Source of the DNA: Eledone cirrhosa
Lineage: Eukaryota
DNA length: 64,000 nt
Reading direction: 5' to 3'
Assembly (NCBI GenBank): GCA_964016885.1
Contig: OZ024742.1
Location: forward strand, 218,798,001-218,862,000
Shown here: positions 7,162 through 63,237 of the stretch, piece by piece
Position numbering within the stretch: the stretch's first letter is position 1
Layout of the letters: every line of letters begins with the position of its first letter
Position numbers and translations under genes: made by a program
Notes under the pieces: generated by a model
Told to the model about the DNA's origin: nothing
The model's input: the letters and a program-made list of their open reading frames with translations, nothing else
Databases searched by the model: none

Positions 7162-7600
7162 CTTGGTGGGGTTGCCGGTTTAGTCGCCGACGACCCGACC
7201 ATGCGACAGGTTGTACTGGGTTACATGTTACCAGTAGCACTCAAGAGTGACCCGACATAGTTTACTTGGTGAGGAGAGTGATTTTGGACACTCTGCAGGA
7301 CAACAAACAAAACCTGACAAAGGGCGGAAGAACTCATAATATATATATATAGGAACACGTATGACCCCGACGGCAGAGCTCAAGCCGTTTCGAGTCCAGA
7401 ATTAGCCGTCGAAACGGCTTGAGCTCTGATGTCGGGGACATACTTGTTCCTATTACCCACTCTACTACCCTAAGCATTGAGTACTTTGGTGCGTTATGAT
7501 CCATCTGGTTCCTTGCCACATTTCCTTCGTTATATATATATATATATATAAGTATGTATGTATACGTACATACATATATGTGTACAGACGTACAGTAGCA

Positions 7601-7682
<82 letters not shown>

Positions 7683-7847
7683 CACATATGCATACAGGTA
7701 CACATACATATATGCACGCATCAGTTTAGCCGACGTTTATTATAACGCAGCTTTGTTCGCTTGTTTGTCAACAAATCGAACAGCCTGAATTTATGCCATA
7801 CGGTGTTAGGGCAACCACGTCACCTTTTTGTTCAACACTGACACAGG

Positions 7848-7892
7848 AACGATGTACTAGTTTCAAGCTTGTTAGCTATCATCAGCACCGTT
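7848..7892 (-). ncRNA. Minimal type I hammerhead ribozyme (inverted copy of 8190-8234)
   Basis: Reverse complement of the 8190-8234 motif. Confidence 0.85.
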
Positions 7893-8189
7893 TACCCATC
7901 TGCCAGATAGTTGAACGTTCGAAAGTATATACTTTCCTTATGAAAATTAACGGCTGCTACTGTACGTCTGTATACATATATGTATGTACGTATACATACA
8001 TACTTACATTTAAGTAAGTGCCATACTAAGAGTGAGAAATGAAATTTCGTTTTCATTTTTTTTTCAACTTGTCGTTTTCGTATGCCTGACCGATTTAACT
8101 CACTCAATATGCAAATTAGGCTGCTCAGCCGTTAACTTTCATAAGGAAAGTATATACTTTCGAACGTTCAACTATCTGGCAGATGGGTA

Positions 8190-8234
8190 AACGGTGCTGA
8201 TGATAGCTAACAAGCTTGAAACTAGTACATCGTT
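8190..8234 (+). ncRNA. Minimal type I hammerhead ribozyme
   Basis: AACGGTG-CTGATGA-tAGC taacaa GCTt-GAAA-CTAG-TA-CATCGTT: 7-bp stem I, palindromic stem III ACTAGT, GUA site. Confidence 0.88.
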
Positions 8235-8399
8235 CCTGTGTCAGTGTTGAACAAAAAGGTGACGTGGTTGCCTTAACACCGTATGGCATAAATTCAGGCT
8301 GTTCGATTTGTTGACAAACAAGCGAACAAAGCTGCGTTATAATAAACGTCGGCTAAACTGATGCGTGCATATATGTATGTGTACCTGTATGCATATGTT

Positions 8400-8451
<52 letters not shown>

Positions 8452-8687
8452 TGCTACTGTACGTCTGTATACATATATGTATGTACGTATACATACATAC
8501 TTACATTTAAGTAAGTGCCATACTAAGAGTGAGAAATGAAATTTCGTTTTCATTTTTTTTTCAACTTATATATATATATATATAGAAAGGATAAAAAGGA
8601 CGATTGATTATTCCTTCATTGCATTTATTGATAGGTGACGAGCGTTTCGCCACTGATCAGCTCAAGGTATATATTTATTTATATATA

Positions 8688-19567: not shown

Positions 19568-21303
19568 CTATAAAACCTCCTTGTACACAATGTTTTTCGT
19601 TTTTCGTTGTGGAACGAACGCGAAAGCATCACTGTTGCTGCCGACACGCGAGCAGCCAACGTAAAGCTGACCATGAGAGAAACATGGCTCCCCCAAATGT
19701 ATTCCCGCCACAGACAGTGTTTGACCCTGCGCTTTGTTAATTGACATAGCGAAACATGGCCTTACTGGGAACTGGGACCTCCGAAATGTGAAAGGTAGGT
19801 CTGCTCCTGATGGGAAAAGATGCATCCTAGGTATGAGCACAACGTTGCCTCGACCGCACCCTGTGATAATCGTGGCCTCAATCAGATTGGGATATAAGGA
19901 CTTAACGATCAAACGTGTGCCATTGCATTGTTTCGGGGGAACCAAATTTCTAATGAGCATTATAGGGGCACCAACTTTAAGTTTGAGAATGTGTGGGGGT
20001 AGTCCGGGGTGCTCAAAGGAATTGAGTACCTCTATTGGATAGTTGATGACGTCCTCTGGGTCAGGAGTTGTATCGATAGACTTATATACATAGCCATCCC
20101 CAGGAATGAGTTTTAGCATTTGATCATTAATATGGTGAACAGTTTTATTCCTCGGGGCCAGAATAGCCCTTTGGCCAATCCAATCTATATTCTGATAATT
20201 AGCTTGTAGATCTGGGAACACTGCATCTGTGAGATCAGAAGGCGTATTAACAATGGTACAAATGGAATCGCTGGCAATATTACCATTTTCATCCCCGGTT
20301 ATTTTGCCTTCGCCAAGTGCAAGGAGGGTGTGAGAAAATGCTGCTGATGCGATAACACCTCACATATGAGCACGCATGTTAGTGTGAAGTACAGAGTCTT
20401 CACCAGTGGCCACAATGTGGATGACTTAAGACACGCACTTACTGCATCAGCTCTAGTCCCCTTGGGAATAACGGGAAGTGTTTGCCGGAAGTCCCCTGAA
20501 AGAAGAAGTGTTATGCCTGCCATGGGAGCTGTAGAGTGTTTGATGTCTCTGAGAGATCTATCTAGTGCCTCAAGAGCACCTCTGTGGGCCATCGTGCATT
20601 CATCCCAAATGATAAGCTTGCATCGTCTGAAGACTTCTGCCTGATCGGAGCTGTTACTGATGTTGCAAGTTGGTGTCTCAGTCTTCGCTAAGTCAAGCGG
20701 GAGCTTGAAAGTGGAGTGAGCTGTCCTGCCACCTGGCAACAAAGGAGCCGCAATTCCAGATGATGCCACAGCTAGGGCAATGCCTTGTGTTCGCCTAATC
20801 TCAGTCAATATTAATTTGTTGACAAAAGTTTTCCCAGTGCCCCCAGGAGCGTCCAGGAAAAAAATCCCCCCAGCTTTGGCCCGGACTGAATTAACAACGG
20901 AGTTGTAAGCGAACTTCTGTTCAGGAAGTAACTTTGGCTCATTCTCGGCTATGTACTGTGCAAGCTCGTTAACATTAAAACATGTCTCACGCAGCAAATC
21001 TGAAGACAGAGTGTTTATGCGTTCCCGGTTTGTTGAAGGTAGGCCATATACCGCCAAGGCACTACCGCCCATATCAAGTACAGTATCTTCGATTTCAAGC
21101 AGCGCCCTGTTGTAAATGAGGTCACTGTACCCGACCTCCATTGATGGATGTAGCCATTGAGCGTGACGCAGGAAATCTTCAGACATATAATCTTTGTAGG
21201 TAAGCCATAAAGAGGCGGGATCAGCCAAGTCACACCATAGGAGTAGAATAGCGAAAAGCGATCTGATTTTTTTAGGAGATTTTAACGAAACACCCTCCGC
21301 CAT
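19568..21303 (-). pseudogene. Helitron Pif1-like SF1 helicase domain (two frames)
   Basis: FLDAPGGTGKT, IIWDECTM, GDFRQTLPV, QFPVRPCFAMSINKAQGQTL, HGQLYVGCSRV. Confidence 0.93.
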
Positions 21304-21315
21304 AGTGGCGCCCCA

Positions 21316-24296
21316 TTATGAATCGTCCTCCAAAAGACCACGCCGAAAGCAGGCTTCCAGGAAAGTATCACATAATCCACCGTCAACAGTTCTTATGTCT
21401 CGAAAGCTTTGTGGGCCAAAAACCTCATGGAGGTGAAGGCGCAGGTGAAAACACTCATGCTGGTTGGGAGGTACAGTGTACACTCTTCCTAGACAACTGT
21501 CAAACTTGACACCAGGATGTCCTTCAACATCCTGACCCGACTTCCTACGCACCCAATTGTTGTTTGACCACACGTAGTAGGACGGGACCTGAGGGTATAA
21601 AAGTGTTTTGGCAAATGTGTCAAGTTGGCAAAGCCTAAAGAAACCGGTCAAAGTTGTTTGTTTGGGATTTGCCGCCAATTGAGCAGCAGTCTGTTCAGTA
21701 AAGTAAGCTCGCTGGCTATTTTCCAAATGAACCGCTAGTTGTATGATGGCGGGGTGCCTTTGGTGAAGCGGAAACCCGAATATCCGCCAAAAAGCTTCAC
21801 CACTGCTTATGTAACGACTTGCCAAGTACTCCGACACCTCGTCCCTGCTATTGTCCTTTTGAAGGCCGAACATGGCAGCGTCAGAACCCTTGTTAACATA
21901 TTTACATATATACTTTATAGACTTTACTGAATGACAGAACTCCACATTTATGTGAGCGTTAAAAGTTTTCATCAGAAATGGACAGTACGGGACTACCCAC
22001 CTATTATCCACTTGATGACCCCGTAACGTCATAGTGAATCCACCATTGTCAGGGTGCCTTCGTCTGTACAGTGGGTATCCGTCGCGGCTTGTCTGGGTCT
22101 CCTCCACGAACCTCTTTGGGTATCGTTTAGTGCACACATGGTCTTTGTGGCATGAGGAGAACTTTTGAAAACCGGGACCACACGGACCGTGCACCATGTG
22201 TGCCTTCACAATGTCGTACAGCTGCCGGTCAACAGTTGGGTCCGGGATTTCTGCTGCGATGACGTCATCAAGAACTGTCGGGTCTATTTTGTTGACCAAC
22301 CAAAGCAAAATGTGCGCGTGTGGCAACCCTATTTTCTTCCACTCAACAGTATACATGTGGCACTTAACAGGACCAAAAACCTGCCCTTTTTTAAATTAAA
22401 TCAATGAGCTTAGCGAGCTTCTGCCTGAAAACCCTTGCAATAATATCATGGCGATGGCAGTACTGCTGCCCTGGGAGAAGTTCTCGCGTTACCTCAAGCC
22501 ACTTTGGGTTACATGTAAAGGTGATGAATAAATCGGGTCGCCCATAATGCCGAACGTAAGTCATAGCGTCTTGTGTTCGCTCGTGCATGTACCGTGGGCC
22601 CCCTGTATAGGTTGAGGGGAGAATGCACATCTTGCCGATGTTGCGGGCGTCAGTGTCATTCCTGATGCCGTCACGAAAATGTATTTAGGAGTCTGAGCGC
22701 AGCTGCTTCTGATTCAATTTGATGAAGCACAGTCTCTCCGACTCCATCTTTGCAGCCATGTCAACGGCAAACTGGTGAAACAGTTCCCGTGAGCTGTGCA
22801 GGGGGCTAAAATCATTATGCCTTGTCATGAAGCGGTATGAGTAGAAAGCCATACATGAAACAGTTTTAGATGTCGCAGCAGTGGGCTCGTTTGGTTTGTT
22901 TGAGGAATGCCGAAATGGTACCCGTCTTCTCCGTACGGAAAAAGAAGGGGATACTGCAGGGCGTCATATGAACGATGCGTCTCATTAATACGTTGAAGAC
23001 CACTGTCGCGGCTTTGAAGAACTATGTCTCGCTTATTGTGCTGTCCACCATGGAGAACTACGGCCACTTCATTGCACGAAGGAGCGTTATATCGGCGTGC
23101 GTGCTCCCCAGAAGGTCTTTTGTCAGCATCGATGACAATGGTGAAGTTTGGTGAAGGGGCTGTTTCCAAGGCGTATTTGAAACTACGAATGTAACTGTTG
23201 TGCTCATGAAGCATGTTTTGCAGACTGAGCAGCACGTCCCTGTCAAAATTGTCAGCGTCAGTGTTTGCAGGTGGTGGAATAACGCCGAAACGCACATCAA
23301 TTTGCGTATTGTAGTTTGAAATGAAGTAAATTTGAAGGAACGAAGGTTTGGAATTTTGTAGTGGCTGAGTGACCCAATAAGGTGGTACACCTGGCCCTGG
23401 ACCTTGAAAGTAGGCATCCAACCAGTTTCTCTGACAACGTTAGCCCCGAAAGAAGTCATCTGAAATGCACAATTGTACTTCCTGATGAGTTGAAGGAATT
23501 TTGATGACCTTGAGGTCGAACCAGTAAGTAATTCCTTCAAAGGGTCTGGCAGCTCCCGAAGAGGGGGGAAGGTGACCTTACCGTTTAAGCAGCACATTGC
23601 AGGTGGTTCCCCAGCCCACTTTTTAGCATTGCAGAATTGGCAATTGAAGCATATTTCCCCAATATTTATGTCGGCGCGCATCGAGTAATTGAAGTTGGGC
23701 TCATACTTGAAAGCCGGTAGATGCCAGTAAGGGCTGTGTGGACTCGTCAGACCGCGGGTAGCCTCGCGCCGTCGACTGTTCCGCTGGAATGTAGAACGTT
23801 GCTGGTCTGAGTCGTGGGTAGGTGTCGCATCAGTAGCAGAAGCGACTTTTGCAATGGTAATGAACCGGCCGTCTGCATCTTGAGAAGGCATGGAAGCAGT
23901 GAAAGCCGCCTTGTTCCTATGAAGGTGAGTGGTCGGTAGTTCGAAACGTTCCGAAAATCTTGAAGCAGCAGTAACCGCAGCGCTTTTAGCCAGTCGAGTG
24001 GCCCTTTGTTGTGGGCCCTCTGAAGCCCTTGAAGCAGCAGCAGCCTTTATAGCCATGCGATTCGACCTTGTTTCCGGACGCTCTGAAGCCCTGGAAGCAG
24101 CATCGTATGAAGTCTTTTTTGCTCGGCGTGCGTTGCGCTGTTGGAAAGTTTCAGCAGCTCGTGATTCCACTAAACGTAAGGCGCTCTGTGAAAGTCTGAA
24201 ATCCTTTTTGTCGGATGACTCGTTTGCGGTAATTGCCTTTTGCGCGACTGCTGCTGCCGTATGGCGGCCGAGGCGACTTCTCTTTTTCGGTGGCAT
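21316..24296 (-). pseudogene. Helitron N-terminal Zn-finger and HUH Rep domain (four fragments)
   Basis: CQFCNAKKW...CCLNGKV; FKVQGQVYH; YDALQYPLLFPYGEDG; PDLFITFTCNPKW (motif I); GLPHAHILLW (HUH); KYICKYVNKG (Y2). Confidence 0.93.
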
Positions 24297-27200
24297 TTTA
24301 TGTGAAAAATAAAGGGTGAAAGTTACTTAAAGATAGAAATTGTAATTAGAATGAAATGTGGAAAAATTTTGACCGTGGAAGGAAAAGAAACAAACATTTG
24401 GAGCTGAAAGAAATTGTTTAGGTAAGTATAGCGACAGAGTGTGTAAAGTGTATTGAAACGTGAGTTAAAAGAAAGAAAATGAAGTGAGATTTGTAAGAAA
24501 GGAAGTTGTTTACGTACATGTGGCAAATGGCAAATGTTTTAGTTGTTTAATAAAATATTTGTGTAAAGTGTATAGAAACGTAAATTGAAACAAAGAAAAT
24601 GAACTTACATTTTTAAGAAAAGAATTTGTTTACGTACATGTTGCAAATGGCAAATGTCTGTGCAGTTGTCAGAAATCTAACCAGGGTACATTTGTGGAAC
24701 TGATGTATTATAATGAATAGTCCATCTCGTTCAGGGTACATGAAGATTAACAACCGAAAATGAAAATAATTGTCGTTTGATTTTACGATTGAAAGAAAAT
24801 AATTGTCGCAAATTAGAATTTTTATTTGTTAATGAAGTGTGTATGTGTGGTTAGAAATCCGGCACGTGGTTAAATTGATTTAAAGTTTAATTATTCATTT
24901 GATGTGAGTGTGTGTTTGTATGTGTTTGCAAATAAATAAATCAGTTTGAAGACTCACATTTAGAATAAACGAAATTGTACGTTAATGTGGCTAATGTTTT
25001 TGTTGTTTAGTCTGTAAAGTGTATGAGTGAGAGAGTAAAACGGACAGTATCACCATCAACATGAACAATGTAAAATGAAAAGAATAGTTGTTTCAGCTTG
25101 GAAAGAGAAAGTAGCAGAAAGTATGAAGTTGTATAGATTTTGAAGGGTAATGGAAAGAGTTTAGCAGTTTAAATGAGAGAGGTAAATCGTAAAATATTGA
25201 GTTTTATCGATTTATTGCGTAATTGTGGGTGAAATTGAAAAAAATATATGTGCCATGACCCAATAAAAGCTATTTCGAATACTGAATTGTAAATTTCAAT
25301 TGAACAAATTCTATATCGTAGATTTCTATAACAAAGAAATGTGACCATACACTGAGCTTTATAGATTATGATATATATATCTTTCTTGGAAGAATGAAAG
25401 GTAACATTGATTCTAGTGGAATTAGAATTGACAACCAATTGGAATGAAATGAAACACCGCAAGAAATGTTATTCATATCCCCTCTTACTGTTTCGGTCAA
25501 CTGTATTTTTCACAACCTTTTGCGGAAAGGGATTCTCAAAATTTATAAGAGAAACTCAGTGGACCACCAAATATAAATATTCTTTTAATTGCATTATGCT
25601 TGCCGTCAATTATCACAACTTTATTTCTCGTTGCTCCAGTTTACTCAGCTAGAAATGAGTTGCGACGTCACTGGTGCTAAGCTGTATCAGCCTTTGCCTT
25701 TCCCTTGGACAACATCGGTGGCGTGGAGAGTGGAAAGTGGTATGCATAGGCGCCTGCTGGTCTTCCACAGACAATCTAGCCCGGACTTGTGCCTCGAAGG
25801 GGAACTTCGTGACCGAAGGCGGTCCACATGAACCTCGTTGCGCATCACTGTCCTGGTTAAAGCGTCATCATGTCACTTTTAAAAGAATATAAAGTTGAAT
25901 TTATATAGTTTTTAAAACTGGTATGACAACTAGTACCTCATATTAACGACCCCTTTACTTCAAGGGGGAGGGTTTATTGTTGGCCCAATAAGCATATTAT
26001 TTAAGGGTATTTATTTTATGGGTCCTGGCTAGTGGGGGGAATGAAAGTCAATTTTATTCGGAGCTACTTTATATGGTGGATTCTCCGTCGGTCTCCACGA
26101 TGATCATTCAGTTGTTCAATTAACTGAATTCCTACTCATGAAATTAAGGTATACTTTGTCGAGTATTCCACAGACACTTGTACCCTTAATGCAATATATA
26201 TTTTCCGGACAAATCAGCTTGACACAATGTAACAAGGTTAGACTTTGAGTTACATATACACTTCAAAGAGAAGAATCGAACCCAGTTCTGGATTGGTAAT
26301 TCATTTATCAACCTCGAAAGGATGAAAGGCAAAGTTGACCGCGGCGAAATCTCTCTCTCTCTCTCAGCGAATTCCCCGTCTTGCTAATTCGTATAACTTA
26401 CGGATATTACGAAAAGTTACAGTGGTGGGTCTAAGATTTGAACTTCTAGGGACGAGCTTTAATTATCACATGTCATTTAATCCAATGATATATTGTTTCT
26501 GCTAGCTTGCTTCCCTCACTTCATAAAATATAAACGGTTTAATCTATTTAATTAAACCACTAAAAGTGTACGAGAGAATTCATAATACTTATATTAATAT
26601 TGCAGTTGTAACGAATTAATGAGAAAGATAGGGAATATGTTATATTAATGATAATAAAGAAGTGAAGCAATGAGACGGTACATTTTTATTTTTATTTTCT
26701 TCACAGTAATTATACATTACATTTCACGTTTCTTTTTTGAGTCTCTTCTATAAATTAACGGTAAATTTCTTCCGAAATTACCTAAAGGCTACATGTATCG
26801 CAAAGTAATTAGAATTATGCCTACTCTACATTTCCACTGAGCCGCTTATCAAATTAATATAAATCTATGAAAACATATAAACAAATTCTGGAACATTTGG
26901 AAATTTGTAATTGATATTTCTGTATACGAAAACAAAAAATTCTGGAACATTTTGAAATGTGTAATTGATATGTCTCTATATTAAAACATTTAAGAAAATT
27001 CCAAAACATTTTGAAATTTGATCTACCTTAAGTCTAGAATATTTTAGGTAAAATCAAATCTTAGTCTATATCAGAAATACTGAAATCTTATGTGTGTGTG
27101 TGTGTGTGGTGGGAGGGAAGCTCGCTATATTCTCCTTTTCTTTACATCTACCTGCGCCTCATCTGCTTCTTGCTACTTTACAGAATTGCGTAGGAAAACG

Positions 27201-38055: not shown

Positions 38056-38232
38056 GTAATAATAATAAATCTGTTATTTTAATAAATATATATATATATG
38101 CAGAGGTTATATTTAATTTGTTGGGAATCAACAAGCTTAAACATTTTATAACTGATATAAAGCACTCAACGGTTTAGTGGAGTAAATACACAATATATTA
38201 ATAAATGGAAACTATATTTATAAAACCATATT

Positions 38233-38298
38233 TATTTTATTATACATATTTCAAGGGCCACCAAGGCAAACTATGGTGCGCTTTCATCAGATAAAATA
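38233..38298 (-). ncRNA. Hammerhead ribozyme
   Basis: TATTTTAT-CTGATGA-AAGcGCACCA...TGGTGGCcCTT-GAAA-TATGTA-TA-ATAAAATA; 8-bp stem I, AUA site; truncated inverted copy at 38410-38500. Confidence 0.8.
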
Positions 38299-38339
38299 CA
38301 GATTTGTTTTATAAATAAATATTGACATACCCGGAAAAA

Positions 38340-38406
38340 AGACAACCTTAACGGTTGGAGCTTCCTGGATAGTCTATCCAGGAAGCTCCAACCGTTAAGG
38401 TTGTCT
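38340..38406. repeat. Perfect 33-bp-arm palindrome with 1-nt spacer
   Basis: AGACAACCTTAACGGTTGGAGCTTCCTGGATAG-T-CTATCCAGGAAGCTCCAACCGTTAAGGTTGTCT. Confidence 0.95.
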
Positions 38407-38495
38407 CTTGAAAGCGCACCATAGTTTGCCTTGGTGGCCCTTGAAATATGTATAATAAAATAAATATGGTTTTATAAATATAGTTTCATTTATTA

Positions 38496-38895
<400 letters not shown>

Positions 38896-40005: not shown

Positions 40006-40069
<64 letters not shown>

Positions 40070-40078
<9 letters not shown>

Positions 40079-41099
40079 TAAACAAATAATGAATAAACAA
40101 TTCCTTATATTAAACAAAAAAAGTTCATTATTTAACGATCGTTTCTAGGATATATATGTGTTAGAATTGGTATGCATATTCAACAGATCTATGTACAAAA
40201 TTATACAAAATTATACAAATTATCAAGATTAAATATACATACCAAACACATATATACGCCGTCTTCAGAAATAATGAAGTATATTTATTGATAATAACAA
40301 CAATTCAAAATTTCAGTTCAAAATTGACCAATGAAAACACAAAGGGTTAAATGCAGTTTGGTGTGTGTATATACATGTAAAACCCTTACACATATTTTAC
40401 AAAAATGTATGTATAATTTGTATACGCATACTAAAAAGATGGATGCAAATACAAAATTTCAAGGTTAATGTCTCTGTAAGCTTACTTTGCGCAGATAAGA
40501 TGCGCATTGATACTTATGAAATCAAGTATATAAATATATTTTTTCATACTCACACATATCAGTACAATCACACATACACGCGCGTATATGCATAAATATA
40601 CACATAACCACGAACATACAAACACACACACACCCCCACTCACATTTATATATGTGGATATAAAATCATAAGCACATGGATATTAATTCACTCACATAAA
40701 ACACTGGTACACACATTTTTAGATCAAGACACAGAAATTAGGTGGGAGGGGGGGAAGGGTCAGTATTCAATTGTCTGAGCAGACTGCCTAATATAAATGT
40801 ATCTATAAATTAAGAAAAATAAAAAAATAAAACAATAAAATATAATAAATATAATATAATATACATACACATACAGATATATACACATACATACATGTAC
40901 ACACACATAGAAATATTTACGCATACACACATACACACATACATATATAGTCATACACACACATACACCTACACGAACATACACATACACATATATAAAG
41001 ATATATATATATACACACACACACGCACGCAACACATACACACATACACATATATATAAAAAAAATAAATAATAAAGATATATACCCATATATATACAT

Positions 41100-41138
<39 letters not shown>

Positions 41139-41213
41139 CATACACATACATCTAAATATACATACGCATACACACACACATACATGTACATACATGTACA
41201 TATACGCACATCG

Positions 41214-41252
<39 letters not shown>

Positions 41253-41523
41253 TAGACATATAGATACATACACACACAACTTACATACACACATATATAT
41301 ATACATGTATATTCATACATAGAATTAGATATATAATCATACATACATATGTACTTACTTATACTCATATATACAAATACATACGCATCCATATATGCGT
41401 ATATACATAAAAAACCGCTACAACCTCACATAAACTCAGACATACAAATAAAAATAATAATAAAAAGGCATATGTATATACATACACACACGCATTAATA
41501 GAGATATACATATACACATACAT

Positions 41524-41562
<39 letters not shown>

Positions 41563-41698
41563 TATATATATATATGTATATACACACACATACACTCATA
41601 CATATATATAAATATATATATATACACATAGATATCCACACACTTATACCACCATAAATACACATACAAACACCCACATATACATATATATACACACG

Positions 41699-41730
<32 letters not shown>

Positions 41731-41849
41731 TAAAAAACAGACATGCACATATATATATATTTTTTTACACTTATATTTATACATATTATATACACATACA
41801 CAACCTCACTTATACACACATACACATAAGTTATATTATAATAATGAAG

Positions 41850-41889
<40 letters not shown>

Positions 41890-41952
41890 TATATACACAT
41901 ACACAACCTCACTTATACACACATACACATAAGTTATATTATAATAATGAAG

Positions 41953-41991
<39 letters not shown>

Positions 41992-42097
41992 TATATATAT
42001 ATATACATACATACATACACACACATACATACATATAAACATATACATACATAAATACACACGTACGAATATAGACATATATTCACACATAGACACC

Positions 42098-42147
<50 letters not shown>

Positions 42148-43293
42148 TACACACATACATATACACAGACACATATACACATTCACATATATATATATAT
42201 ATGTGTGTGTGTGTACACACACATATATACACACACACACACAAATACACATAAACACATACATATGCATACATGCACACACACACACATATATCACATA
42301 GATACGAAGATAAACATATAAATAGAGAGACATACATATATATACAACACACATACACACACATACATACACGCGCATATACATATACATATATTTATAC
42401 ATATATATATTCCTATATATACATACATACACATATATACACATATATACACATACATACACATATACGTATACACATTCACATACACATACATATATAA
42501 TGCATATATACACATATATACATACATATACACACTCATATATACACACGCAATCTTACATTCATATTTGCATGCGCATATATATATTTTTATATTTAGA
42601 TATAAATACCCAAACCTATATAGACACCTACCTACATATATATTCATACATAGACGCTTACAATACAGATGATAATAGTATGGGGGAAAGGGGGGGTTTG
42701 GAGAAGGGGATCAAAGTAAATATATGTTTCAAGAAACATAAAATATTTTCCGTATCTTTATCCAATGTATGTTCTTATATATTTTCAGTGTTAGGAAACA
42801 TAACCAACAAGAACTAAGGCAAAATCTATGCATCTCAAAATAAATAAGTATACCATTAATCATATGTTAACTAAACCAAAAATAGTCAACATATTGACTT
42901 CTAAGGTGTAAATTAGTTAGGTTTATAATATTTGAAGCAGAATTTTGAAGTTAAACAGTAGTAGATTATTAATTACAGTATAATTAAATTAAAGTTAATA
43001 ACGTTATGGTATCAATATTAGGAAATGAATTTAGTAATAGGGAAAAAAAACACAAATAAAAATAAAATAAAGTATTACATCGGTAGTAGAATATAAATTA
43101 TATGTTAACTAAATTAAAAATTATATATTTATTTCAATAGTATATGTTAGTTAGGTATACAATACATAAAGTAGATATTGTATTTCATCAATAGCATAAT
43201 ATAATTATATGCAAATAGAAATCAAAATTAATACGCATACATATACATAAACATACACATACACATACATATACATATATATACACACACATA

Positions 43294-43325
<32 letters not shown>

Positions 43326-44273
43326 CACATATATATATACACATATATACATACATACACATATACATACACAACCACACATACACATACACATATACAT
43401 ATACATATCTTTTTCAAAAAATTGCATAGAATATATTAACTAGGTATATATCCAAAACACATCCCATTCTATGATTACATGACATTCTGCAATTCGTCTG
43501 TATAAGGATACTAATTTTAAGCAAATTAAAATTAAAATTTTAGGTTGATTAAAACTAAAACCAAATAATAAATATATTTCTAAAATGTATATTAATTAGG
43601 TCTATAATACTAAAAATTATTTCTCTGTCATTGGATACACGATATTATTTTGTTATATTTTATCTGTAAAAGAATTATAATAAAAGGTTTAAATAAGTTA
43701 AAATTAATCTATAAATTAAATTACTAAGTATATATTAGTAATATTTAAAGGTTTTTCACAATTTATGATTACATAATATTTTATATTCTCATCTGTAATA
43801 AAATTAAATTTATAGGTTAAATTAATTTCTAAAATAATGTTATTAATTAGGTTTATAATATTTAAATGTTTTTTTTAATTTATGATTACACGATATAATT
43901 AATTCCTGTCGTTTATTTAATAAGATATCCTTAGACTTCATTATTTCAAATAGTTCTTGGGAACATAATCTACATTCATTTCTATTATTTTGATAAGGGG
44001 TGGCTCTTTTGAGCACACTCCAGGTCAAATCATATTTTATATTCTTATTTTTATAACTATTGATTTTTTCTGCTAGAGATGTTGTATTAGCCAGTGCGGC
44101 ATTTTTAAAACTATGCTTGTGGGTATTAAACCTTGTCTTAAAATTGTTAGAGGTAGCTCCTATATATGAGCAAATAGAATCTTTAGTTTTAACATTACAT
44201 TTATAGACTATGTTGTTAACGAGACAATTCCCTTTTAATGGGCAGTTTGCTTTGTTTCTACAGTTACATCCTT
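40070..44273 (-). repeat. Inverted copy of the element's 3' half (= reverse complement of 46634-50844)
   Basis: Junctions read directly; mirror-image ORFs in the track are identical (e.g. 43843..44028 equals the ORF C-terminus; 42097..42549 equals 48358..48810). Confidence 0.97.
40124..40278 (-). ncRNA. Hammerhead ribozyme, inverted copy of 50636-50790
   Basis: Within the inverted arm. Confidence 0.7.
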
Positions 44274-44276
44274 ACA

Positions 44277-44470
44277 GAACTTTTTTTGTTTAATATAAGG
44301 AATTGTTTATTCATTATTTGTTTAATATTTTATCTTGACTCTGTATACCGTTTATCTTTCACCGAAAGTGGTTTTTCATTACATCTCTTCTTTCCATGAT
44401 ATCCGGAATACATTGAGTTCTTCATACGGATTGGACACTACCGTAAACTCTTGGTAGATTTATCTACATA
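44277..44470 (+). repeat. 5' pseudo-LTR (194 bp)
   Basis: GAACTTTTTTTG...TATCTACATA matches 50788-50981. Confidence 0.95.
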
Positions 44471-44622
44471 ATTTTGCTCCTATTTTCACGGAAATATTCG
44501 TATTTTTGTACTGTATGTGTGTATTAATTTTATATTTATGTATAAACATATATATATGTATGATTTTGTAAACCCATATACATTTAGTTGAGCTCTTTCA
44601 ATTGTCCATCATCCATATCACA

Positions 44623-47064
44623 ATGGAAAAACAATATTTAGGAACCTCCTTAAAAAACATACCAATACCTTCTAAGGACGACTTCTTACTCCTTATGATT
44701 CAGAAAACTAATAATTTTATCAGAAGGGTTAGATGGAGAGCCTACCACTTCGATAGAAAATCTAAACAAGCAGATCGGAAATATATGTATGATTTCAATA
44801 CTTACAAGAATCCACCACACAATTTTTTACTTGAAGACTTCGAGAAAGACCTTTTTAATTTAATTAAACACCTCAAATTTAAAAAGTATAAATCCGTCTT
44901 TCAAAAGGACCTTGACTCTACCCTATTGGACCTAAAAAAGTCTAAAAAAATCCATGTCCACTCGGACAAAACTGGTAACTTGTATCATATGGATATTGAA
45001 CATTATAATGAGTTCATATATAAAGAACTCAGAAAAAATTATAAAAAATCTAATAATGTGTCACTCACCAACATCAACAACAAAACACACAACATAGTAA
45101 AAAAACTAAACATTGAAGATAGAACTGAACCTTTGGCATTGAAAAGACCACACTTCAACCTGAAAGATCACAAATCTAACTTTAACTCAAATCCTTCTAT
45201 TAGACTTATATGTCCCTCCAAATCAGATATTGGAATAATTAGCAAAAAAATTTTAGATAGAGTCATCCCACAAATAAGAAAACACGTTATTTTACCACTC
45301 TGGGAAAACACCTCCCAGGTAATTAACTGGTTTAAAAATATTAGGTGTAAATCTTCTGCTTCTTTCCTACAATTTGATATAGATAATTACTATTCTTCTA
45401 TATCACCTATACTCCTGAACAAAGCATTGATATTTGCTAAAAATAGATCTAACTTAACTTTGGATGACATTAACATTATTACACATGCTAGACTAACACT
45501 TATTGAATTTCAGAATGAATACTGGACCAGAAACACATACAGTAATCTTTTTGATATTACTATGGGTTCAAGCGATTCCGCCCAAATTACTGATCTTGTG
45601 GGCCTCTTTCTCCTTTTCAACATAAATGCCTCTTTTCCCCACCTCAAAGGTGGTTTATATCGTGATGACTGTCTTCTTCTTTCTAACAACCTTAGCCTTT
45701 CAGAAATCGAAAAAAACAAAAAACATATTAGAACTTTCCTTAAAGACTATTATAATCTTAATATTACTTTTGAAAAAACAAGTAAAGTAGTAAATTTCCT
45801 AGATATAACTTTAGATCTAGCTACGGGTATCTACCAACCTTACCATAAACCTAACCAAAACTTACATTACATACACTCACAATCTAATCACCCTAAATCT
45901 ATCCTTAAAAACCTTGCATATAATATATCACTTAGAATTTCTAACCTTTCTTCTAACCAAGATGTATTTGATAAAAATGCGACCTTCTATAACGAAGCTC
46001 TAGATAGAAGTGGCCACAAAAATAGATTAGAGTATATACCTTCTACTAAAAATACTGAAAGCATACAACATAATATTACCAACAAACACCAAATGAAAAC
46101 TACACACCTAAATGCCACCCACACTATACCCCAAAATACTAAATCTTCTAATATAAAGTATAGTAACTCTCAAAAAACTACTCATCATACAACTATAATA
46201 AATATTAATAATAAAACTCCTAATAAAAAAGATAAAACACCTAAATCTACAAATATAACTAAAAATAGTTGTGGTGAGATCATTAACATTAATCCTCCTA
46301 GTAAAAATCACGATACAACCTATAAAAATAATAAAAATAATAAACAACATAGAAACCGTAATAGACGGGTTACTTGGTATAATGCTCCTTTTAATTTACA
46401 AGTTAAGGATAATATTGCTAAAAAATTTTTTTATATCCTTGAGAAAAACTTCCCGCCAAACCACAAATACCATCAAATCTTAAATAGGTCTACAGTTAAA
46501 TTCTCATACTCTACAACAAATAACATAAAACAAAATATAAGTGCATATAATGCATATAAATGTAAGAAAACCATAAGTATACCACCAGTACATCAAATTA
46601 ACCATAATATCTCCTCAAATACAGAATTAACGAAAGGATGTAACTGTAGAAACAAAGCAAACTGCCCATTAAAAGGGAATTGTCTCGTTAACAACATAGT
46701 CTATAAATGTAATGTTAAAACTAAAGATTCTATTTGCTCATATATAGGAGCTACCTCTAACAATTTTAAGACAAGGTTTAATACCCACAAGCATAGTTTT
46801 AAAAATGCCGCACTGGCTAATACAACATCTCTAGCAGAAAAAATCAATAGTTATAAAAATAAGAATATAAAATATGATTTGACCTGGAGTGTGCTCAAAA
46901 GAGCCACCCCTTATCAAAATAATAGAAATGAATGTAGATTATGTTCCCAAGAACTATTTGAAATAATGAAGTCTAAGGATATCTTATTAAATAAACGACA
47001 GGAATTAATTATATCGTGTAATCATAAATTAAAAAAAACATTTAAATATTATAAACCTAATTAA
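44623..47064 (+). CDS. Penelope-like reverse transcriptase + GIY-YIG endonuclease (Naiad-type), intact, ~813 aa
   Basis: SLKNIPIP N-terminus; FLQFDIDNYYSSI, ITMGSSDSAQI, GLYRDD, VNFLDITLDL RT motifs; CNCRNKANCPLKGNC Zn linker; IVYKC...YIGAT...FKTRFNTHKHSF nuclease; CRLC...LLNKRQELIISCNH end; first ATG at 44623. Confidence 0.95.
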   Translation: MEKQYLGTSLKNIPIPSKDDFLLLMIQKTNNFIRRVRWRAYHFDRKSKQADRKYMYDFNTYKNPPHNFLLEDFEKDLFNLIKHLKFKKYKSVFQKDLDSTLLDLKKSKKIHVHSDKTGNLYHMDIEHYNEFIYKELRKNYKKSNNVSLTNINNKTHNIVKKLNIEDRTEPLALKRPHFNLKDHKSNFNSNPSIRLICPSKSDIGIISKKILDRVIPQIRKHVILPLWENTSQVINWFKNIRCKSSASFLQFDIDNYYSSISPILLNKALIFAKNRSNLTLDDINIITHARLTLIEFQNEYWTRNTYSNLFDITMGSSDSAQITDLVGLFLLFNINASFPHLKGGLYRDDCLLLSNNLSLSEIEKNKKHIRTFLKDYYNLNITFEKTSKVVNFLDITLDLATGIYQPYHKPNQNLHYIHSQSNHPKSILKNLAYNISLRISNLSSNQDVFDKNATFYNEALDRSGHKNRLEYIPSTKNTESIQHNITNKHQMKTTHLNATHTIPQNTKSSNIKYSNSQKTTHHTTIININNKTPNKKDKTPKSTNITKNSCGEIININPPSKNHDTTYKNNKNNKQHRNRNRRVTWYNAPFNLQVKDNIAKKFFYILEKNFPPNHKYHQILNRSTVKFSYSTTNNIKQNISAYNAYKCKKTISIPPVHQINHNISSNTELTKGCNCRNKANCPLKGNCLVNNIVYKCNVKTKDSICSYIGATSNNFKTRFNTHKHSFKNAALANTTSLAEKINSYKNKNIKYDLTWSVLKRATPYQNNRNECRLCSQELFEIMKSKDILLNKRQELIISCNHKLKKTFKYYKPN

Positions 47065-47581
47065 TAACATTATTTTAGAAATTAATTTAACCTATAAATT
47101 TAATTTTATTACAGATGAGAATATAAAATATTATGTAATCATAAATTGTGAAAAACCTTTAAATATTACTAATATATACTTAGTAATTTAATTTATAGAT
47201 TAATTTTAACTTATTTAAACCTTTTATTATAATTCTTTTACAGATAAAATATAACAAAATAATATCGTGTATCCAATGACAGAGAAATAATTTTTAGTAT
47301 TATAGACCTAATTAATATACATTTTAGAAATATATTTATTATTTGGTTTTAGTTTTAATCAACCTAAAATTTTAATTTTAATTTGCTTAAAATTAGTATC
47401 CTTATACAGACGAATTGCAGAATGTCATGTAATCATAGAATGGGATGTGTTTTGGATATATACCTAGTTAATATATTCTATGCAATTTTTTGAAAAAGAT
47501 ATGTATATGTATATGTGTATGTGTATGTGTGGTTGTGTATGTATATGTGTATGTATGTATATATGTGTATATATATATGTG

Positions 47582-47613
<32 letters not shown>

Positions 47614-48759
47614 TATGTGTGTGTATATATATGTATATGTATGTGTATGTGTATGTTTATGTATATGTATGCGTATTAATTTTGATTTCTATTTGCATAT
47701 AATTATATTATGCTATTGATGAAATACAATATCTGCTTTATGTATTGTATACCTAACTAACATATACTATTGAAATAAATATATAATTTTTAATTTAGTT
47801 AACATATAATTTATATTCTACTACCGATGTAATACTTTATTTTATTTTTATTTGTGTTTTTTTTCCCTATTACTAAATTCATTTCCTAATATTGATACCA
47901 TAACGTTATTAACTTTAATTTAATTATACTGTAATTAATAATCTACTACTGTTTAACTTCAAAATTCTGCTTCAAATATTATAAACCTAACTAATTTACA
48001 CCTTAGAAGTCAATATGTTGACTATTTTTGGTTTAGTTAACATATGATTAATGGTATACTTATTTATTTTGAGATGCATAGATTTTGCCTTAGTTCTTGT
48101 TGGTTATGTTTCCTAACACTGAAAATATATAAGAACATACATTGGATAAAGATACGGAAAATATTTTATGTTTCTTGAAACATATATTTACTTTGATCCC
48201 CTTCTCCAAACCCCCCCTTTCCCCCATACTATTATCATCTGTATTGTAAGCGTCTATGTATGAATATATATGTAGGTAGGTGTCTATATAGGTTTGGGTA
48301 TTTATATCTAAATATAAAAATATATATATGCGCATGCAAATATGAATGTAAGATTGCGTGTGTATATATGAGTGTGTATATGTATGTATATATGTGTATA
48401 TATGCATTATATATGTATGTGTATGTGAATGTGTATACGTATATGTGTATGTATGTGTATATATGTGTATATATGTGTATGTATGTATATATAGGAATAT
48501 ATATATGTATAAATATATGTATATGTATATGCGCGTGTATGTATGTGTGTGTATGTGTGTTGTATATATATGTATGTCTCTCTATTTATATGTTTATCTT
48601 CGTATCTATGTGATATATGTGTGTGTGTGTGCATGTATGCATATGTATGTGTTTATGTGTATTTGTGTGTGTGTGTGTATATATGTGTGTGTACACACAC
48701 ACACATATATATATATATATGTGAATGTGTATATGTGTCTGTGTATATGTATGTGTGTA

Positions 48760-48809
<50 letters not shown>

Positions 48810-48915
48810 GGTGTCTATGTGTGAATATATGTCTATATTCGTACGTGTGTATTTATGTATGTATATGTTTATATGTATGTATGTGTGTGTATGTATGTAT
48901 GTATATATATATATA

Positions 48916-48954
<39 letters not shown>

Positions 48955-49017
48955 CTTCATTATTATAATATAACTTATGTGTATGTGTGTATAAGTGAGG
49001 TTGTGTATGTGTATATA

Positions 49018-49057
<40 letters not shown>

Positions 49058-49176
49058 CTTCATTATTATAATATAACTTATGTGTATGTGTGTATAAGTG
49101 AGGTTGTGTATGTGTATATAATATGTATAAATATAAGTGTAAAAAAATATATATATATGTGCATGTCTGTTTTTTA

Positions 49177-49208
<32 letters not shown>

Positions 49209-49344
49209 CGTGTGTATATATATGTATATGTGGGTGTTTGTATGTGTATTTATGGTGGTATAAGTGTGTGGATATCTATGTGTATATATATATATTTATA
49301 TATATGTATGAGTGTATGTGTGTGTATATACATATATATATATA

Positions 49345-49383
<39 letters not shown>

Positions 49384-49654
49384 ATGTATGTGTATATGTA
49401 TATCTCTATTAATGCGTGTGTGTATGTATATACATATGCCTTTTTATTATTATTTTTATTTGTATGTCTGAGTTTATGTGAGGTTGTAGCGGTTTTTTAT
49501 GTATATACGCATATATGGATGCGTATGTATTTGTATATATGAGTATAAGTAAGTACATATGTATGTATGATTATATATCTAATTCTATGTATGAATATAC
49601 ATGTATATATATATGTGTGTATGTAAGTTGTGTGTGTATGTATCTATATGTCTA

Positions 49655-49699
<45 letters not shown>

Positions 49700-49774
49700 C
49701 GATGTGCGTATATGTACATGTATGTACATGTATGTGTGTGTGTATGCGTATGTATATTTAGATGTATGTGTATG

Positions 49775-49813
<39 letters not shown>

Positions 49814-50635
49814 ATGTATATATATGGGTATATATCTTTATTATTTATTTTTTTTATATATATGTGTATGTGTGTATGTGTTGCGTGCGTGTGTGTGTGT
49901 ATATATATATATCTTTATATATGTGTATGTGTATGTTCGTGTAGGTGTATGTGTGTGTATGACTATATATGTATGTGTGTATGTGTGTATGCGTAAATAT
50001 TTCTATGTGTGTGTACATGTATGTATGTGTATATATCTGTATGTGTATGTATATTATATTATATTTATTATATTTTATTGTTTTATTTTTTTATTTTTCT
50101 TAATTTATAGATACATTTATATTAGGCAGTCTGCTCAGACAATTGAATACTGACCCTTCCCCCCCCTCCCACCTAATTTCTGTGTCTTGATCTAAAAATG
50201 TGTGTACCAGTGTTTTATGTGAGTGAATTAATATCCATGTGCTTATGATTTTATATCCACATATATAAATGTGAGTGGGGGTGTGTGTGTGTTTGTATGT
50301 TCGTGGTTATGTGTATATTTATGCATATACGCGCGTGTATGTGTGATTGTACTGATATGTGTGAGTATGAAAAAATATATTTATATACTTGATTTCATAA
50401 GTATCAATGCGCATCTTATCTGCGCAAAGTAAGCTTACAGAGACATTAACCTTGAAATTTTGTATTTGCATCCATCTTTTTAGTATGCGTATACAAATTA
50501 TACATACATTTTTGTAAAATATGTGTAAGGGTTTTACATGTATATACACACACCAAACTGCATTTAACCCTTTGTGTTTTCATTGGTCAATTTTGAACTG
50601 AAATTTTGAATTGTTGTTATTATCAATAAATATAC

Positions 50636-50790
50636 TTCATTATTTCTGAAGACGGCGTATATATGTGTTTGGTATGTATATTTAATCTTGATAATTTGTA
50701 TAATTTTGTATAATTTTGTACATAGATCTGTTGAATATGCATACCAATTCTAACACATATATATCCTAGAAACGATCGTTAAATAATGAA
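50636..50790 (+). ncRNA. Hammerhead ribozyme of the Penelope-like element, ~115-nt stem II
   Basis: TTCATTATTT-CTGAAGA-...TATATATGTGTT...AACACATATATA...-GAAA-CGATCG-TT-AAATAATGAA; perfect 10-bp stem I, palindromic stem III, predicted cut after 50780; base of stem II is mismatched. Confidence 0.75.
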
Positions 50791-50975
50791 CTTTTTTTGT
50801 TTAATATAAGGAATTGTTTATTCATTATTTGTTTAATATTTTATCTTGACTCTGTATACCGTTTATCTTTCACCGAAAGTGGTTTTTCATTACATCTCTT
50901 CTTTCCATGATATCCGGAATACATTGAGTTCTTCATACGGATTGGACACTACCGTAAACTCTTGGTAGATTTATC

Positions 50976-50981
<6 letters not shown>
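50788..50981 (+). repeat. 3' pseudo-LTR (194 bp)
   Basis: Direct repeat of 44277-44470, runs into (TA)n. Confidence 0.95.
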
Positions 50982-51015
<34 letters not shown>

Positions 51016-51023
<8 letters not shown>

Positions 51024-51421
51024 TAACAGATTAAGGTTTAAGCAAAGAATCGCTGCTTTCACCCTTAACGGGATCTTCTGAAACTAACAAAGTCAATCTG
51101 TAAACACAGAACTGGATATTTCAAAACACGTTGCAACCGGAGGAAGACAGGAAGACGATACTTTGGTTCGTGGAAACGTTCACCAAAGTATCGTCTTCCT
51201 GTCTTCCTCCGGTTGCAACGTTTTTTGAAATATCCACTTCTGCGTTTACAGATTGACTTTGTTAGTTTCAGAAGATCCCGTTAAGGGTGAAAGCAGCGAT
51301 TCTTTGCTTAAACTTTAATCTGTTATTTTAATAAATATTTGCTCAACAGTTCTTATATATTTGATATATATTTATCCTTATCGAGCCCTCTTTGGATTTT
51401 AGTCTTTAAATTTATTATTAT

Positions 51422-51484
<63 letters not shown>

Positions 51485-51549
51485 TAACAGATTAAAGTTT
51501 AAGCAAAGAATCGCTGCTTTCACCCTTAACGGGATTTTCTGAAACTAAT
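51016..51549. mobile_element. Fold-back mini-element with variant HHR
   Basis: ~150-bp arms 51016-51168 / 51182-51331, third partial copy 51478-51549; AGTTT-CAGAAGA-tCCC gttaa GGGt-GAAA-GCA...TGC-TT-AAACT at 51264-51314. Confidence 0.7.
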
Positions 51550-53514: not shown

Positions 53515-54449
53515 TAAATTTTCCTATTTCCTCTGCCATCCTTCATCTAATCGTTTTACAAGTTTCTGCATATTATTCAACCTTCTAAGTATTGATTTCT
53601 TTTTATTTTCATTTCCGTCCTTCTTTTCATCAATTTGAATGTTTTTTTATACTGTCCACCACCTTTAGACACTATGAGTCTACATTTTAGTTTTCCATTT
53701 CATCATTTAACATTTCAAAATCTATTTTGTATTTCTTTATTTATATTTCTGTTTGATATTCATTTGGAGGACTTGTACATTTACTTATGGCCTCCTTTTT
53801 TCTGACTACTTTAGCTTTTCCTATTTCACTACAATACTTTTTACCTTTACCAAATAATTGTTTCTACTTTAGGCACAAAGCCAGTGAATTACTGGTACTT
53901 TATTTTATCCATGGGACTGCCTGTTTCTTTAAAATTTCTAACCACCTTCCCCACTGTGGAAAAGTCAATTGGGGTCCTTGTGGGATGACATGCATTAAAA
54001 ACATCTGCTATCTTTCAATATGACCATCCTTCACATCAAGTGAGAAGTACCAGTTCAATCCTTTCTTCTTTCGACAAACTCATATTTAATCTATGAGGGA
54101 AAACATTCTAGTTAGTTATAAATAGTGATATTTCTTGTGTCTAGACTTTAGGGACACCATGTAGTGTAATGGTGATTCGGCCTGCTAACTACGAGATGCA
54201 ATACTCAGTTAACTTCACGTTAATCTAACAAGCAGGTATTTCAGTTGAACGAAATACTGAATGCTCATCATCGAAACCGACGTATGACCCACCATATATA
54301 TATATATATATATATATATAATGTAGGAGGTGAGTTTTATTGTAGTACAATAAAGCAATGCAGATATCGGATAAGAAGCACTCTACAGTTTGTAGGACTG
54401 GAGTATATATAATATATAAGAACAAAAGATGGTTAAAAGAGTTCCATGT

Positions 54450-54518
54450 ATTTTATTATGCGCATTTCAAAAACAAATATCATCATGCAATAATATTTGT
54501 GTTTTCATCAGATAAAAC
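54450..54518 (-). ncRNA. Hammerhead ribozyme (inverted copy of 54624-54692)
   Basis: Left arm of the fold-back 54413-54555 / 54588-54730. Confidence 0.82.
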
Positions 54519-54623
54519 AGGAAGACATGATATGAAGATTAAAAAACACTTGTGATAGTGGATATGTTGATTTAAAACTGCACTATCCACAAGTGTTTTT
54601 TAATCTTTATATCATGTCTTCCT

Positions 54624-54692
54624 GTTTTATCTGATGAAAACACAAATATTATTGCATGATGATATTTGTTTTTGAAATGCGCATAATAAAAT
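54624..54692 (+). ncRNA. Hammerhead ribozyme
   Basis: GTTTTAT-CTGATGA-AAAcACAAATATT...GATATTTGTTTTT-GAAA-TGCGCA-TA-ATAAAAT; palindromic stem III ATGCGCAT, AUA site. Confidence 0.85.
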
Positions 54693-54722
54693 ACATGGAA
54701 CTCTTTTAACCATCTTTTGTTC

Positions 54723-54792
<70 letters not shown>

Positions 54793-62388: not shown

Positions 62389-62546
62389 AAGAGGAATGTA
62401 TTTGATTATGTCTCATATAAAACAATACAACTGGCTATCCACAAAATAAGTATAGTTAGCACCCCAAACGTATAATTGGGATTATACTTAGGTATACCCT
62501 AATGTTTGTTGAGTGAGACGGAAGTCGGGTGGAGTATATTTATATA

Positions 62547-63233
62547 TATATAAGTATGTATACGTACATACATATATGTATACAGACGTACAGTAGTATG
62601 TATATATATATACATACATGCACACATATATATATGTACGTATGGATTCACCGAACATTTATTATAATGCTCGGTGTGTTTGTAAACAAACACACCGAGT
62701 ATTATAATAAATGTTTGGTGAATCCATACGTACATATATATATGTGTGCATGTATGTATATATATATACATACTACTGTACGTCTGTATACATATATGTA
62801 TGTACGTATACATACTTATATTTAAGTAACAGCCGTACTAAGAGTGAGAAATGAAATTTCGTTTCATTTTTTCCGTTTATTGTTTTCGGTACCCCGGCCG
62901 ATTAACTCACTCGATATGCAAATTAGGCGGCTCAGCCGTTAATATGCATAAGGAAAGTATATACTTTCAGACGTTCAATCATCTGGCAGGAAGGTATATG
63001 TTGCTGACGATAGCTAATAAGCTTGAAACTAGTACAGCGTTCCTTTGTCAGGGTTGAACAAATGAGCAATGATGGTTGCTAGACACTGTACGGCTTAATT
63101 CGGGATGTTTGTTTACAAACACACCGAGCATTATAATAAATGTTCGGTGAATCCATACGTACATATATATATGTGTATATATATACATACTAATGTACGT
63201 CTGTATACATATATGTATGTACGTATACATACT

Positions 63234-63237
<4 letters not shown>
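62547..63237 (+). mobile_element. HHR mini-element family A, copy 2 (inverted fragment + ~429-bp unit with ~130-bp terminal direct repeat)
   Basis: 62547-62692 inverted; 62686-62820 repeated at 63115-63237; homologous to 7549-8567. Confidence 0.85.
62998..63040 (+). ncRNA. Minimal type I hammerhead ribozyme (family A)
   Basis: ATGTTG-CTGACGA-tAGC taataa GCTt-GAAA-CTAG-TA-CAGCGT. Confidence 0.85.

Follow-up and report, generated by a model that had tools for sequence, protein, structure and literature searches.

A Hydra-clade Penelope-like retroelement in Eledone cirrhosa with a 5' junction close to its predicted hammerhead cut

Introduction

Penelope-like elements (PLEs) are retroelements that carry hammerhead ribozymes, the in vivo role of which is stated as unresolved (PMC8557442; PMC7761336). 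That the ribozyme sets the end of the template has already been proposed in general terms (PMC4209133). The element considered here lies in a 64,000-nucleotide (nt) stretch of Eledone cirrhosa DNA (assembly GCA_964016885.1, contig OZ024742.1, positions 218,798,001–218,862,000 of the forward strand), referred to as the window and numbered from its first letter. Its 5' junction falls close to the predicted hammerhead cut, and both of its outer ends lie just ahead of copies of a repeated motif.

The closest described relatives form the Hydra clade (PMC8557442). Like the window element, these have one open reading frame (ORF) bearing RWK-type, DKT, CxCx5C, CxxC and CxH motifs and no conserved CCHH, a (TA)n target, a type I hammerhead with palindromic stem III, and a partial tandem with an inverted 5'-truncated arm. 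By contrast, the window unit measures 6.5 kb instead of <3 kb, and in its hammerhead the stem II arm reaches 116 nt and stem I 10 bp. Sections 3 and 11 of the same source contain no mapping of 5' junctions to the cut and describe no twin motif, and a search of the literature without most subscription papers found no published description of either.

In the Poseidon element PAc of Anolis, reverse transcription in vitro uses two internal starts and both target strands are cleaved (PMC11167929). The likeness to the window element extends to the position of the two starts downstream of the hammerhead, where they define the "tail," to the use of both target strands, and to uncut RNA as the main substrate. 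However, 137 nt separate the putative starts of the window element, each of which is followed by a copy of a GCTC..TTGAGCAC motif and passes into (TA)n through a short TA match, whereas the PAc starts fall within the ORF, in an AC-rich stem-loop, and share no homology with the target (PMC11167929). The Penelope element of Drosophila virilis belongs to another clade; partial tandems with large inverted repeats are its commonest form and it retains a 75-nt intron in the 5' untranslated region (UTR), as may the window element, but its transcription starts 46 nt before the intron and hence upstream of the hammerhead (PMC2377424), the ribozyme being located at the intron's 3' end (PMC4209133). The hepatitis delta virus-like ribozymes of R2 and L1Tc and the non-LTR (long terminal repeat) retrozymes likewise show that self-cleaving RNA is able to give a retroelement template its 5' end (PMC6765202; PMC7761336). 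In these systems the ribozyme sits at the 5' end of the element, or circles are formed, as a rule, whereas the relatives of the window element mostly keep the whole ribozyme and read through it.

Structure of the Element and Its 5' Junction

The element consists of two arms joined head to head within (TA)n. The long arm comprises one whole 6511-nt unit plus 194 nt: the 5' copy of a direct repeat (pseudo-LTR or tail, 44277–44470, plus strand) is 100% identical over 194 nt to the 3' copy (50788–50981, plus strand), and the identity stops exactly at 44276/50787. The inverted arm (40070–44273, minus strand) is a 5'-truncated second copy that matches the reverse complement of 46634–50844 over 4.2 kb at 99.8% identity, with one substitution and two small gaps. 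Three filler bases (44274–44276) connect the arms; a templated origin of this filler from 46620–26 was rejected (P = 0.31). In hammerhead coordinates, where +1 is the first base past the predicted cut (after GUU, 50780), both outer ends pass into (TA)n, that of the inverted arm at +64 (start site 1) and that of the long arm at +201 (start site 2). The right-hand (TA)n target occupies 50980–51018 and its left counterpart ~40010–40071, with no readable target duplication. Each arm contains an intact hammerhead motif, and the one in the inverted arm (40124–40278, minus strand, descriptor scan, predicted cut 40134) is traversed without a break.

At its 5' end the long arm halts at +8. The initial annotation had placed the unit start (44277, equivalent to 50788) 7 nt past the predicted cut, and this position is confirmed; it lies within the 3' strand of stem I (+1 to +10).

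The Predicted Hammerhead

The hammerhead (50636–50790, plus strand) is of type I with a long stem II, as identified by descriptor scan of the window, folding and comparison with the published table of Hydra-clade hammerheads. Stem I has 10 bp, in which 50636–45 pairs with 50781–90. The core consists of CUGAAGA (50646–52), GAAA (50769–72), the palindromic ACGAUCGU of stem III (50772–79) and U17 at 50780, so that the conserved elements (CUGANGA, GAAA, UH) and the three helices are all present and cleavage is predicted after 50780. The base of stem II is weak, with the pairs C.A, G.U, G-C, C.C and G.U in order. Stem I pairs with probabilities of 0.6–0.84, the region folds strongly (z = −6.4), and the 8-nt palindrome of stem III permits a dimer. 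A search of the whole window against Rfam gave no match at the gathering score. The published table lists hammerheads with stem II base mismatches, palindromic stem III and GUU, GUA or GUC triplets (PMC8557442, supplement), and with its intact core the window motif has the mismatched base, the palindrome and the GUU found among them. Hammerheads of relatives also match published rows, namely those of L013 and L090/L096 with Penelope-1_NV and Hydra-2_aMil. Metazoan PLE hammerheads are described as dimerizing through the stem III palindrome (PMC4209133).

The 5' strand of stem I recurs without change at 50821–50830 (plus strand, +41 to +50), where it offers an alternative partner for +1 to +10, with a perfect 10 bp in the window. 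This alternative was rejected as a conserved trait, the mean match over 41 hammerheads being 2.27 versus 2.28 in shuffled sequences, and its hairpin gave z = −0.96.

5' Junctions in Relatives

The junction census draws on 78 metagenome loci, taken from the 80 best among 408 confirmed stretches, and on 18 loci in genome bins resembling host contigs. Automatic junction calling was noisy, and in its place junctions were mapped by hand against same-family references once the hammerheads had been located. Of the resulting 39 junctions, 8 belong to the window, 21 to 6 bin loci and 10 to 9 metagenome loci; only 3–4 of them come from the main element's own family and the rest mainly from relatives. 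The census was not blind, several arms are common to one family or host, and collapse may have affected short-read contigs. Excluded were four 5' ends abutting (TA)n at start sites (L084 at +43, L009 at +32, L014 at +93 and L010 at +123), the tangled remnant at 62.5–63.2 kb, a remnant near 17.9 kb, arms without a visible 3' part or ribozyme, and non-Hydra elements. Viral contigs yielded no relatives and no match to the pattern.

The 5' junctions are widely spread, from −4146 to +225, a scatter of the kind that the initial annotation had itself named as telling against its proposal. At least one cut site is crossed by 34 of the 39 arms; four arms end before reaching it, at a distance of >10 nt, and one ends at +1. 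The interval +1 to +10 holds two of the 39 junctions, that of the window copy (among the 34) and one at L090. Five copies reach a second hammerhead, where the window copy stops and L082, L037, L016 and L029 pass (the inverted arm of L029 has its junction at +51). Complete copies beginning at the cut, as in R2-like elements, are not the pattern of this census of mainly relatives. It is therefore likely that the ribozyme does not set the template 5' end as a rule, and cut-ended templates probably exist as a minority.

The second near-cut case, L090:10607–10780, is a head-to-head insertion in (TA)n from an independent family. One of its arms starts exactly at +1 (L090:10683), immediately past the cut predicted after GUA, and the junction shows a single base of microhomology; a later deletion within the palindromic insertion could also have given rise to this junction. 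Within −300 to +100, two of 23 junctions fall at +1 to +10, against 0.58 expected from a uniform spread (P = 0.11). With the discovery copy removed the count is one of 22 (P = 0.43), and P = 0.10 for an exact match at +1/+2. The closeness of the junction to the cut exceeds chance only mildly. Five of 23 5' ends also cluster 6–15 nt ahead of the core (fixed-window P = 2e-4), but the corrected values are 0.03 in a scan, 0.18 with paired arms counted once and 0.36 in cut-relative coordinates; the cluster may mark a transcription start, comparable to the one that D. virilis Penelope has upstream of its ribozyme, but is suggestive only and not significant after correction. Head-to-head (TA)n insertions preserve the start and the stop of each complementary DNA (cDNA), so that counting junctions across a single host genome would directly measure the share of cut templates.

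Several further arrangements were seen among these loci. At L084:7842–10451, L009:981, L014:3168 and L010:629 the 5' end too meets (TA)n close to or at a start site; these copies amount to roughly one full round from one site to the other or to a nested insertion into the TA motif. L083, L090 and L095 contain several Penelope-like families nested in one another's (TA)n ends, on contigs filed as bacterial genome bins, a filing that is likely due to host contamination. At L091:1996–2006 two copies join tail to tail, one of them ending 10 nt past its own ribozyme cut, probably through deletion.

Twin Motif and Proposed Starts of Reverse Transcription

The 5' UTRs of the relatives carry a GCTC..TTGAGCACT motif, which the window element has in two variant copies, both on the plus strand and located by motif search. 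Copy 1 (GACTCT..GAGTTCT, 44337–44421) has start site 1 placed 3–4 nt ahead of it, and copy 2 (GCTCC..GAGCTCT, 44476–44596) has start site 2 placed 5 nt ahead. Of 33 UTRs, 30 contain the downstream half of the motif one or more times and 22 contain it two or more times, versus 1.1 and 0 in shuffles. Automatic detection returned 27 element-to-(TA)n ends, of which 17 have a Hydra-type reference continuing into the element, 4 are uninformative, 1 is a 5' end and 5 belong to other repeats; in all 17 informative cases (13 by regular expression, 4 by eye) the outer (3') end lies 2–8 nt ahead of either copy of the twin motif. The arms of two-armed insertions, read by eye, use different motif copies in six of seven cases (the main element, 54.3–54.7 kb, L083b, L083c, L089 and L090d); the exception, L083a, uses copy 1 twice.

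These positions suggest that the twin motif marks two internal starts of reverse transcription downstream of the ribozyme, and this motif-linked pair of starts is a firmer mechanistic result, better supported than an end set by the cut. Because the starts are located downstream of the ribozyme, arms longer than 64–201 nt require an uncut or re-ligated ribozyme, and read-through is therefore the norm. The inverted arm, which the initial annotation took to have been added later at the 5' end, is more convincing as a second cDNA, begun at a start site of its own in (TA)n. The twin motif is a concrete candidate for the start signal of reverse transcription in the Hydra clade.

A candidate 75-nt GT..AG intron of the 5' UTR (44513–44587, plus strand, predicted by eye) falls in the loop of motif copy 2, and its removal would cut this loop to roughly the size seen in relatives. 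Adjoining the right (TA)n flank, a palindromic non-coding element (51019–51548) has a degenerate hammerhead-like core, and its outer end likewise precedes a GCTC..GAGC motif.

The Family in Public Reads

Four public runs were aligned to 50060–50981. The read depth of the ribozyme and tail is far above that of the upstream UTR, and copies that are without 84–86 nt of the stem II arm retain both halves of the core. One contig from run X3, of the same family, folds back at ~50639/50641, the 5' foot of the ribozyme (~−141/−139). A single opposite-strand joint at 50718/50846 (one start) is ambiguous. Pile-ups in the restriction-site-associated DNA library fall on ATGCAT and AATT sites, except for one at 50790 of 390 molecule ends. 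There, plus-oriented DNA fragments end after already spanning the cut; the pile-up is attributed to a variant site in other copies and is no evidence on 5' junctions.

Origin of the 5' Junction

For the long arm of the window copy, the chance that its template ended at the hammerhead cut, by a minority route, is put at close to even. A single (TA)n break would have primed two reverse transcriptions, one on each side, and the two resulting cDNAs would have been joined head to head with three filler bases between them. The downstream hammerhead of the template would have been uncut or re-ligated, like that of most templates, while the upstream one would have cut this particular RNA, the long cDNA then running off the cut end. 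The missing 7 nt may have been held in stem I or trimmed in end joining. The proposal of the initial annotation that the RNA template began at the cut is plausible for this copy, alongside L090 at +1, and falls as a rule on the arms that read through. A wider reading is less likely than not: the junctions would record in vivo cleavage, with a minority of templates ending at the cut (L090 at +1, the window copy at +8) and others ending where transcription starts, immediately 5' of the ribozyme, and the clade-wide twin motif would position two reverse transcriptase (RT) molecules, one per target strand, giving the head-to-head inverted structure. The posterior for a cut-defined end is roughly 0.27–0.94 over the assumed priors, or 0.27–0.65 at a census-based prior of 3%, and the weights given to the readings are rough judgments on assumed priors and not measurements.

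Several observations weigh against an end made by the cut. The window element ends at +8 instead of +1, and both of its arms start downstream of a hammerhead (+64, +201) and traverse an uncut one; in the census, read-through prevails, a single arm ends at +1 and the excess near the cut falls short of significance. The Hydra-1_Obim consensus does not start at its own cut. In its minimum-energy fold the monomer adopts an inactive register, more stable than the active one by 3.1 kcal/mol, and the in vitro activity of metazoan PLE hammerheads is low (PMC4209133). In public run X1 the depth increases about fourfold around 50618 and stays level across the cut (780k versus 799k in the flanking bins). 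As a weak negative, 50781–90 holds none of the 24 loose ends listed out of 365 in the four runs. Hammerhead mutants of PAc insert normally in vitro, the ribozyme being dispensable in this sole in vitro system, and RNA-seq of PAc contains no reads starting or ending at the cut (PMC11167929).

Ordinary 5' truncation, in which the cDNA halted arbitrarily on an uncut, longer-than-unit RNA and lies near the cut by coincidence, is a somewhat unlikely but serious account. It fits the spread of junctions in the relatives and in the window remnants, the passage of the second cut by L082, L037, L016 and L029, the P of only 0.11 for the excess at +1 to +10, and the heavy 5' truncation typical of PLEs (PMC8557442). 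However, at an assumed chance of 1–2.5% per copy for a 10-nt interval, the window copy together with a relative at exactly +1 exceeds the expectation, though not significantly. A stall of the RT at the foot of the hammerhead in uncut RNA, so that structure and not cleavage set the end, is improbable. The junction does lie 2–3 bp inside the well-paired stem I of a strongly folding region, but in the window insertion the same enzyme twice read through the identical fold, 34 of the 39 arms cross such folds, and the other nearby case, L090, is at +1 and not at the foot of its 5–6 bp stem. The cut and the stall predict nearly equal positions, because stem I spans +1 to +10 in both.

Least credible is a general rule by which, family-wide, templates take their 5' end from the hammerhead cut and the inverted arm is added later. 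The window junction at +8 and that of L090 at +1 agree with it, as does the earlier proposal that the ribozyme processes PLE precursors (PMC4209133), but it conflicts with the read-through of most arms, with the same-family fold-back at ~−141/−139 and with the motif-linked start that the inverted arm has of its own in (TA)n.

Coding Region and Clade Assignment

The single ORF (44623–47064, plus strand) is intact and encodes 813 aa with YRDD and a C-terminal VY..YIG, as expected of a PLE RT followed by a GIY-YIG-type endonuclease. Scoring of 7999 candidates gave 118 homologues at E ≤ 1e-10, and Pfam matched no family on the 813-aa ORF. The ORF has RWR and, in place of DKG, DKT, whereas the consensus of 34 proteins has RWK and ADKT; Hydra-1_Crog also has RWR. 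The linker CNCRNKANC (CxCx5C) and, around the conserved E and N, CRLC (CxxC) and CNH (CxH) are present and at least 90% conserved. CCHH is absent, and the two cysteines between VY and YIG, 8 residues apart, are unconserved. The main element also lies in (TA)n and has a canonical hammerhead, as expected of the Hydra clade. Its 6511-nt unit exceeds the size of <3 kb that is general for the clade rather than defining, the excess deriving from an unusually long (3.6 kb), microsatellite-rich 3' region (47065–50635, plus strand) present in both arms. Judged from sequence motifs, which agree with the definition of the clade (PMC8557442, section 11), the main element is an intact, young Hydra-clade PLE with a predicted RT and C-terminal endonuclease, and a fresh member of an already described clade. 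Two diverged tandem copies of ~120 nt, 72% identical, span the end of the ORF (47011–47254), and a further pair is found at 47674–48060.

Other Features of the Window

A miniature of the main structure is located at 7530–8568, where a 497-nt non-coding hammerhead unit forms a partial tandem and an inverted arm in (TA)n, with 5' junctions at +225 and −101; a tangled copy related to this unit lies at 62537–63235. Short head-to-head hammerhead remnants of other families occur at 54318–54730 and 38200–38500, and the 5' junctions of all four arms lie upstream of the ribozyme (−104, −124, −131 and −131). The descriptor scan returned more hammerhead-like motifs, of uncertain status, at 2565, 17938 (minus strand) and 52166. 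A broken Helitron occupies 19568–24326 on the minus strand, with matches to PIF1 helicase, Helitron_like_N and STPR.

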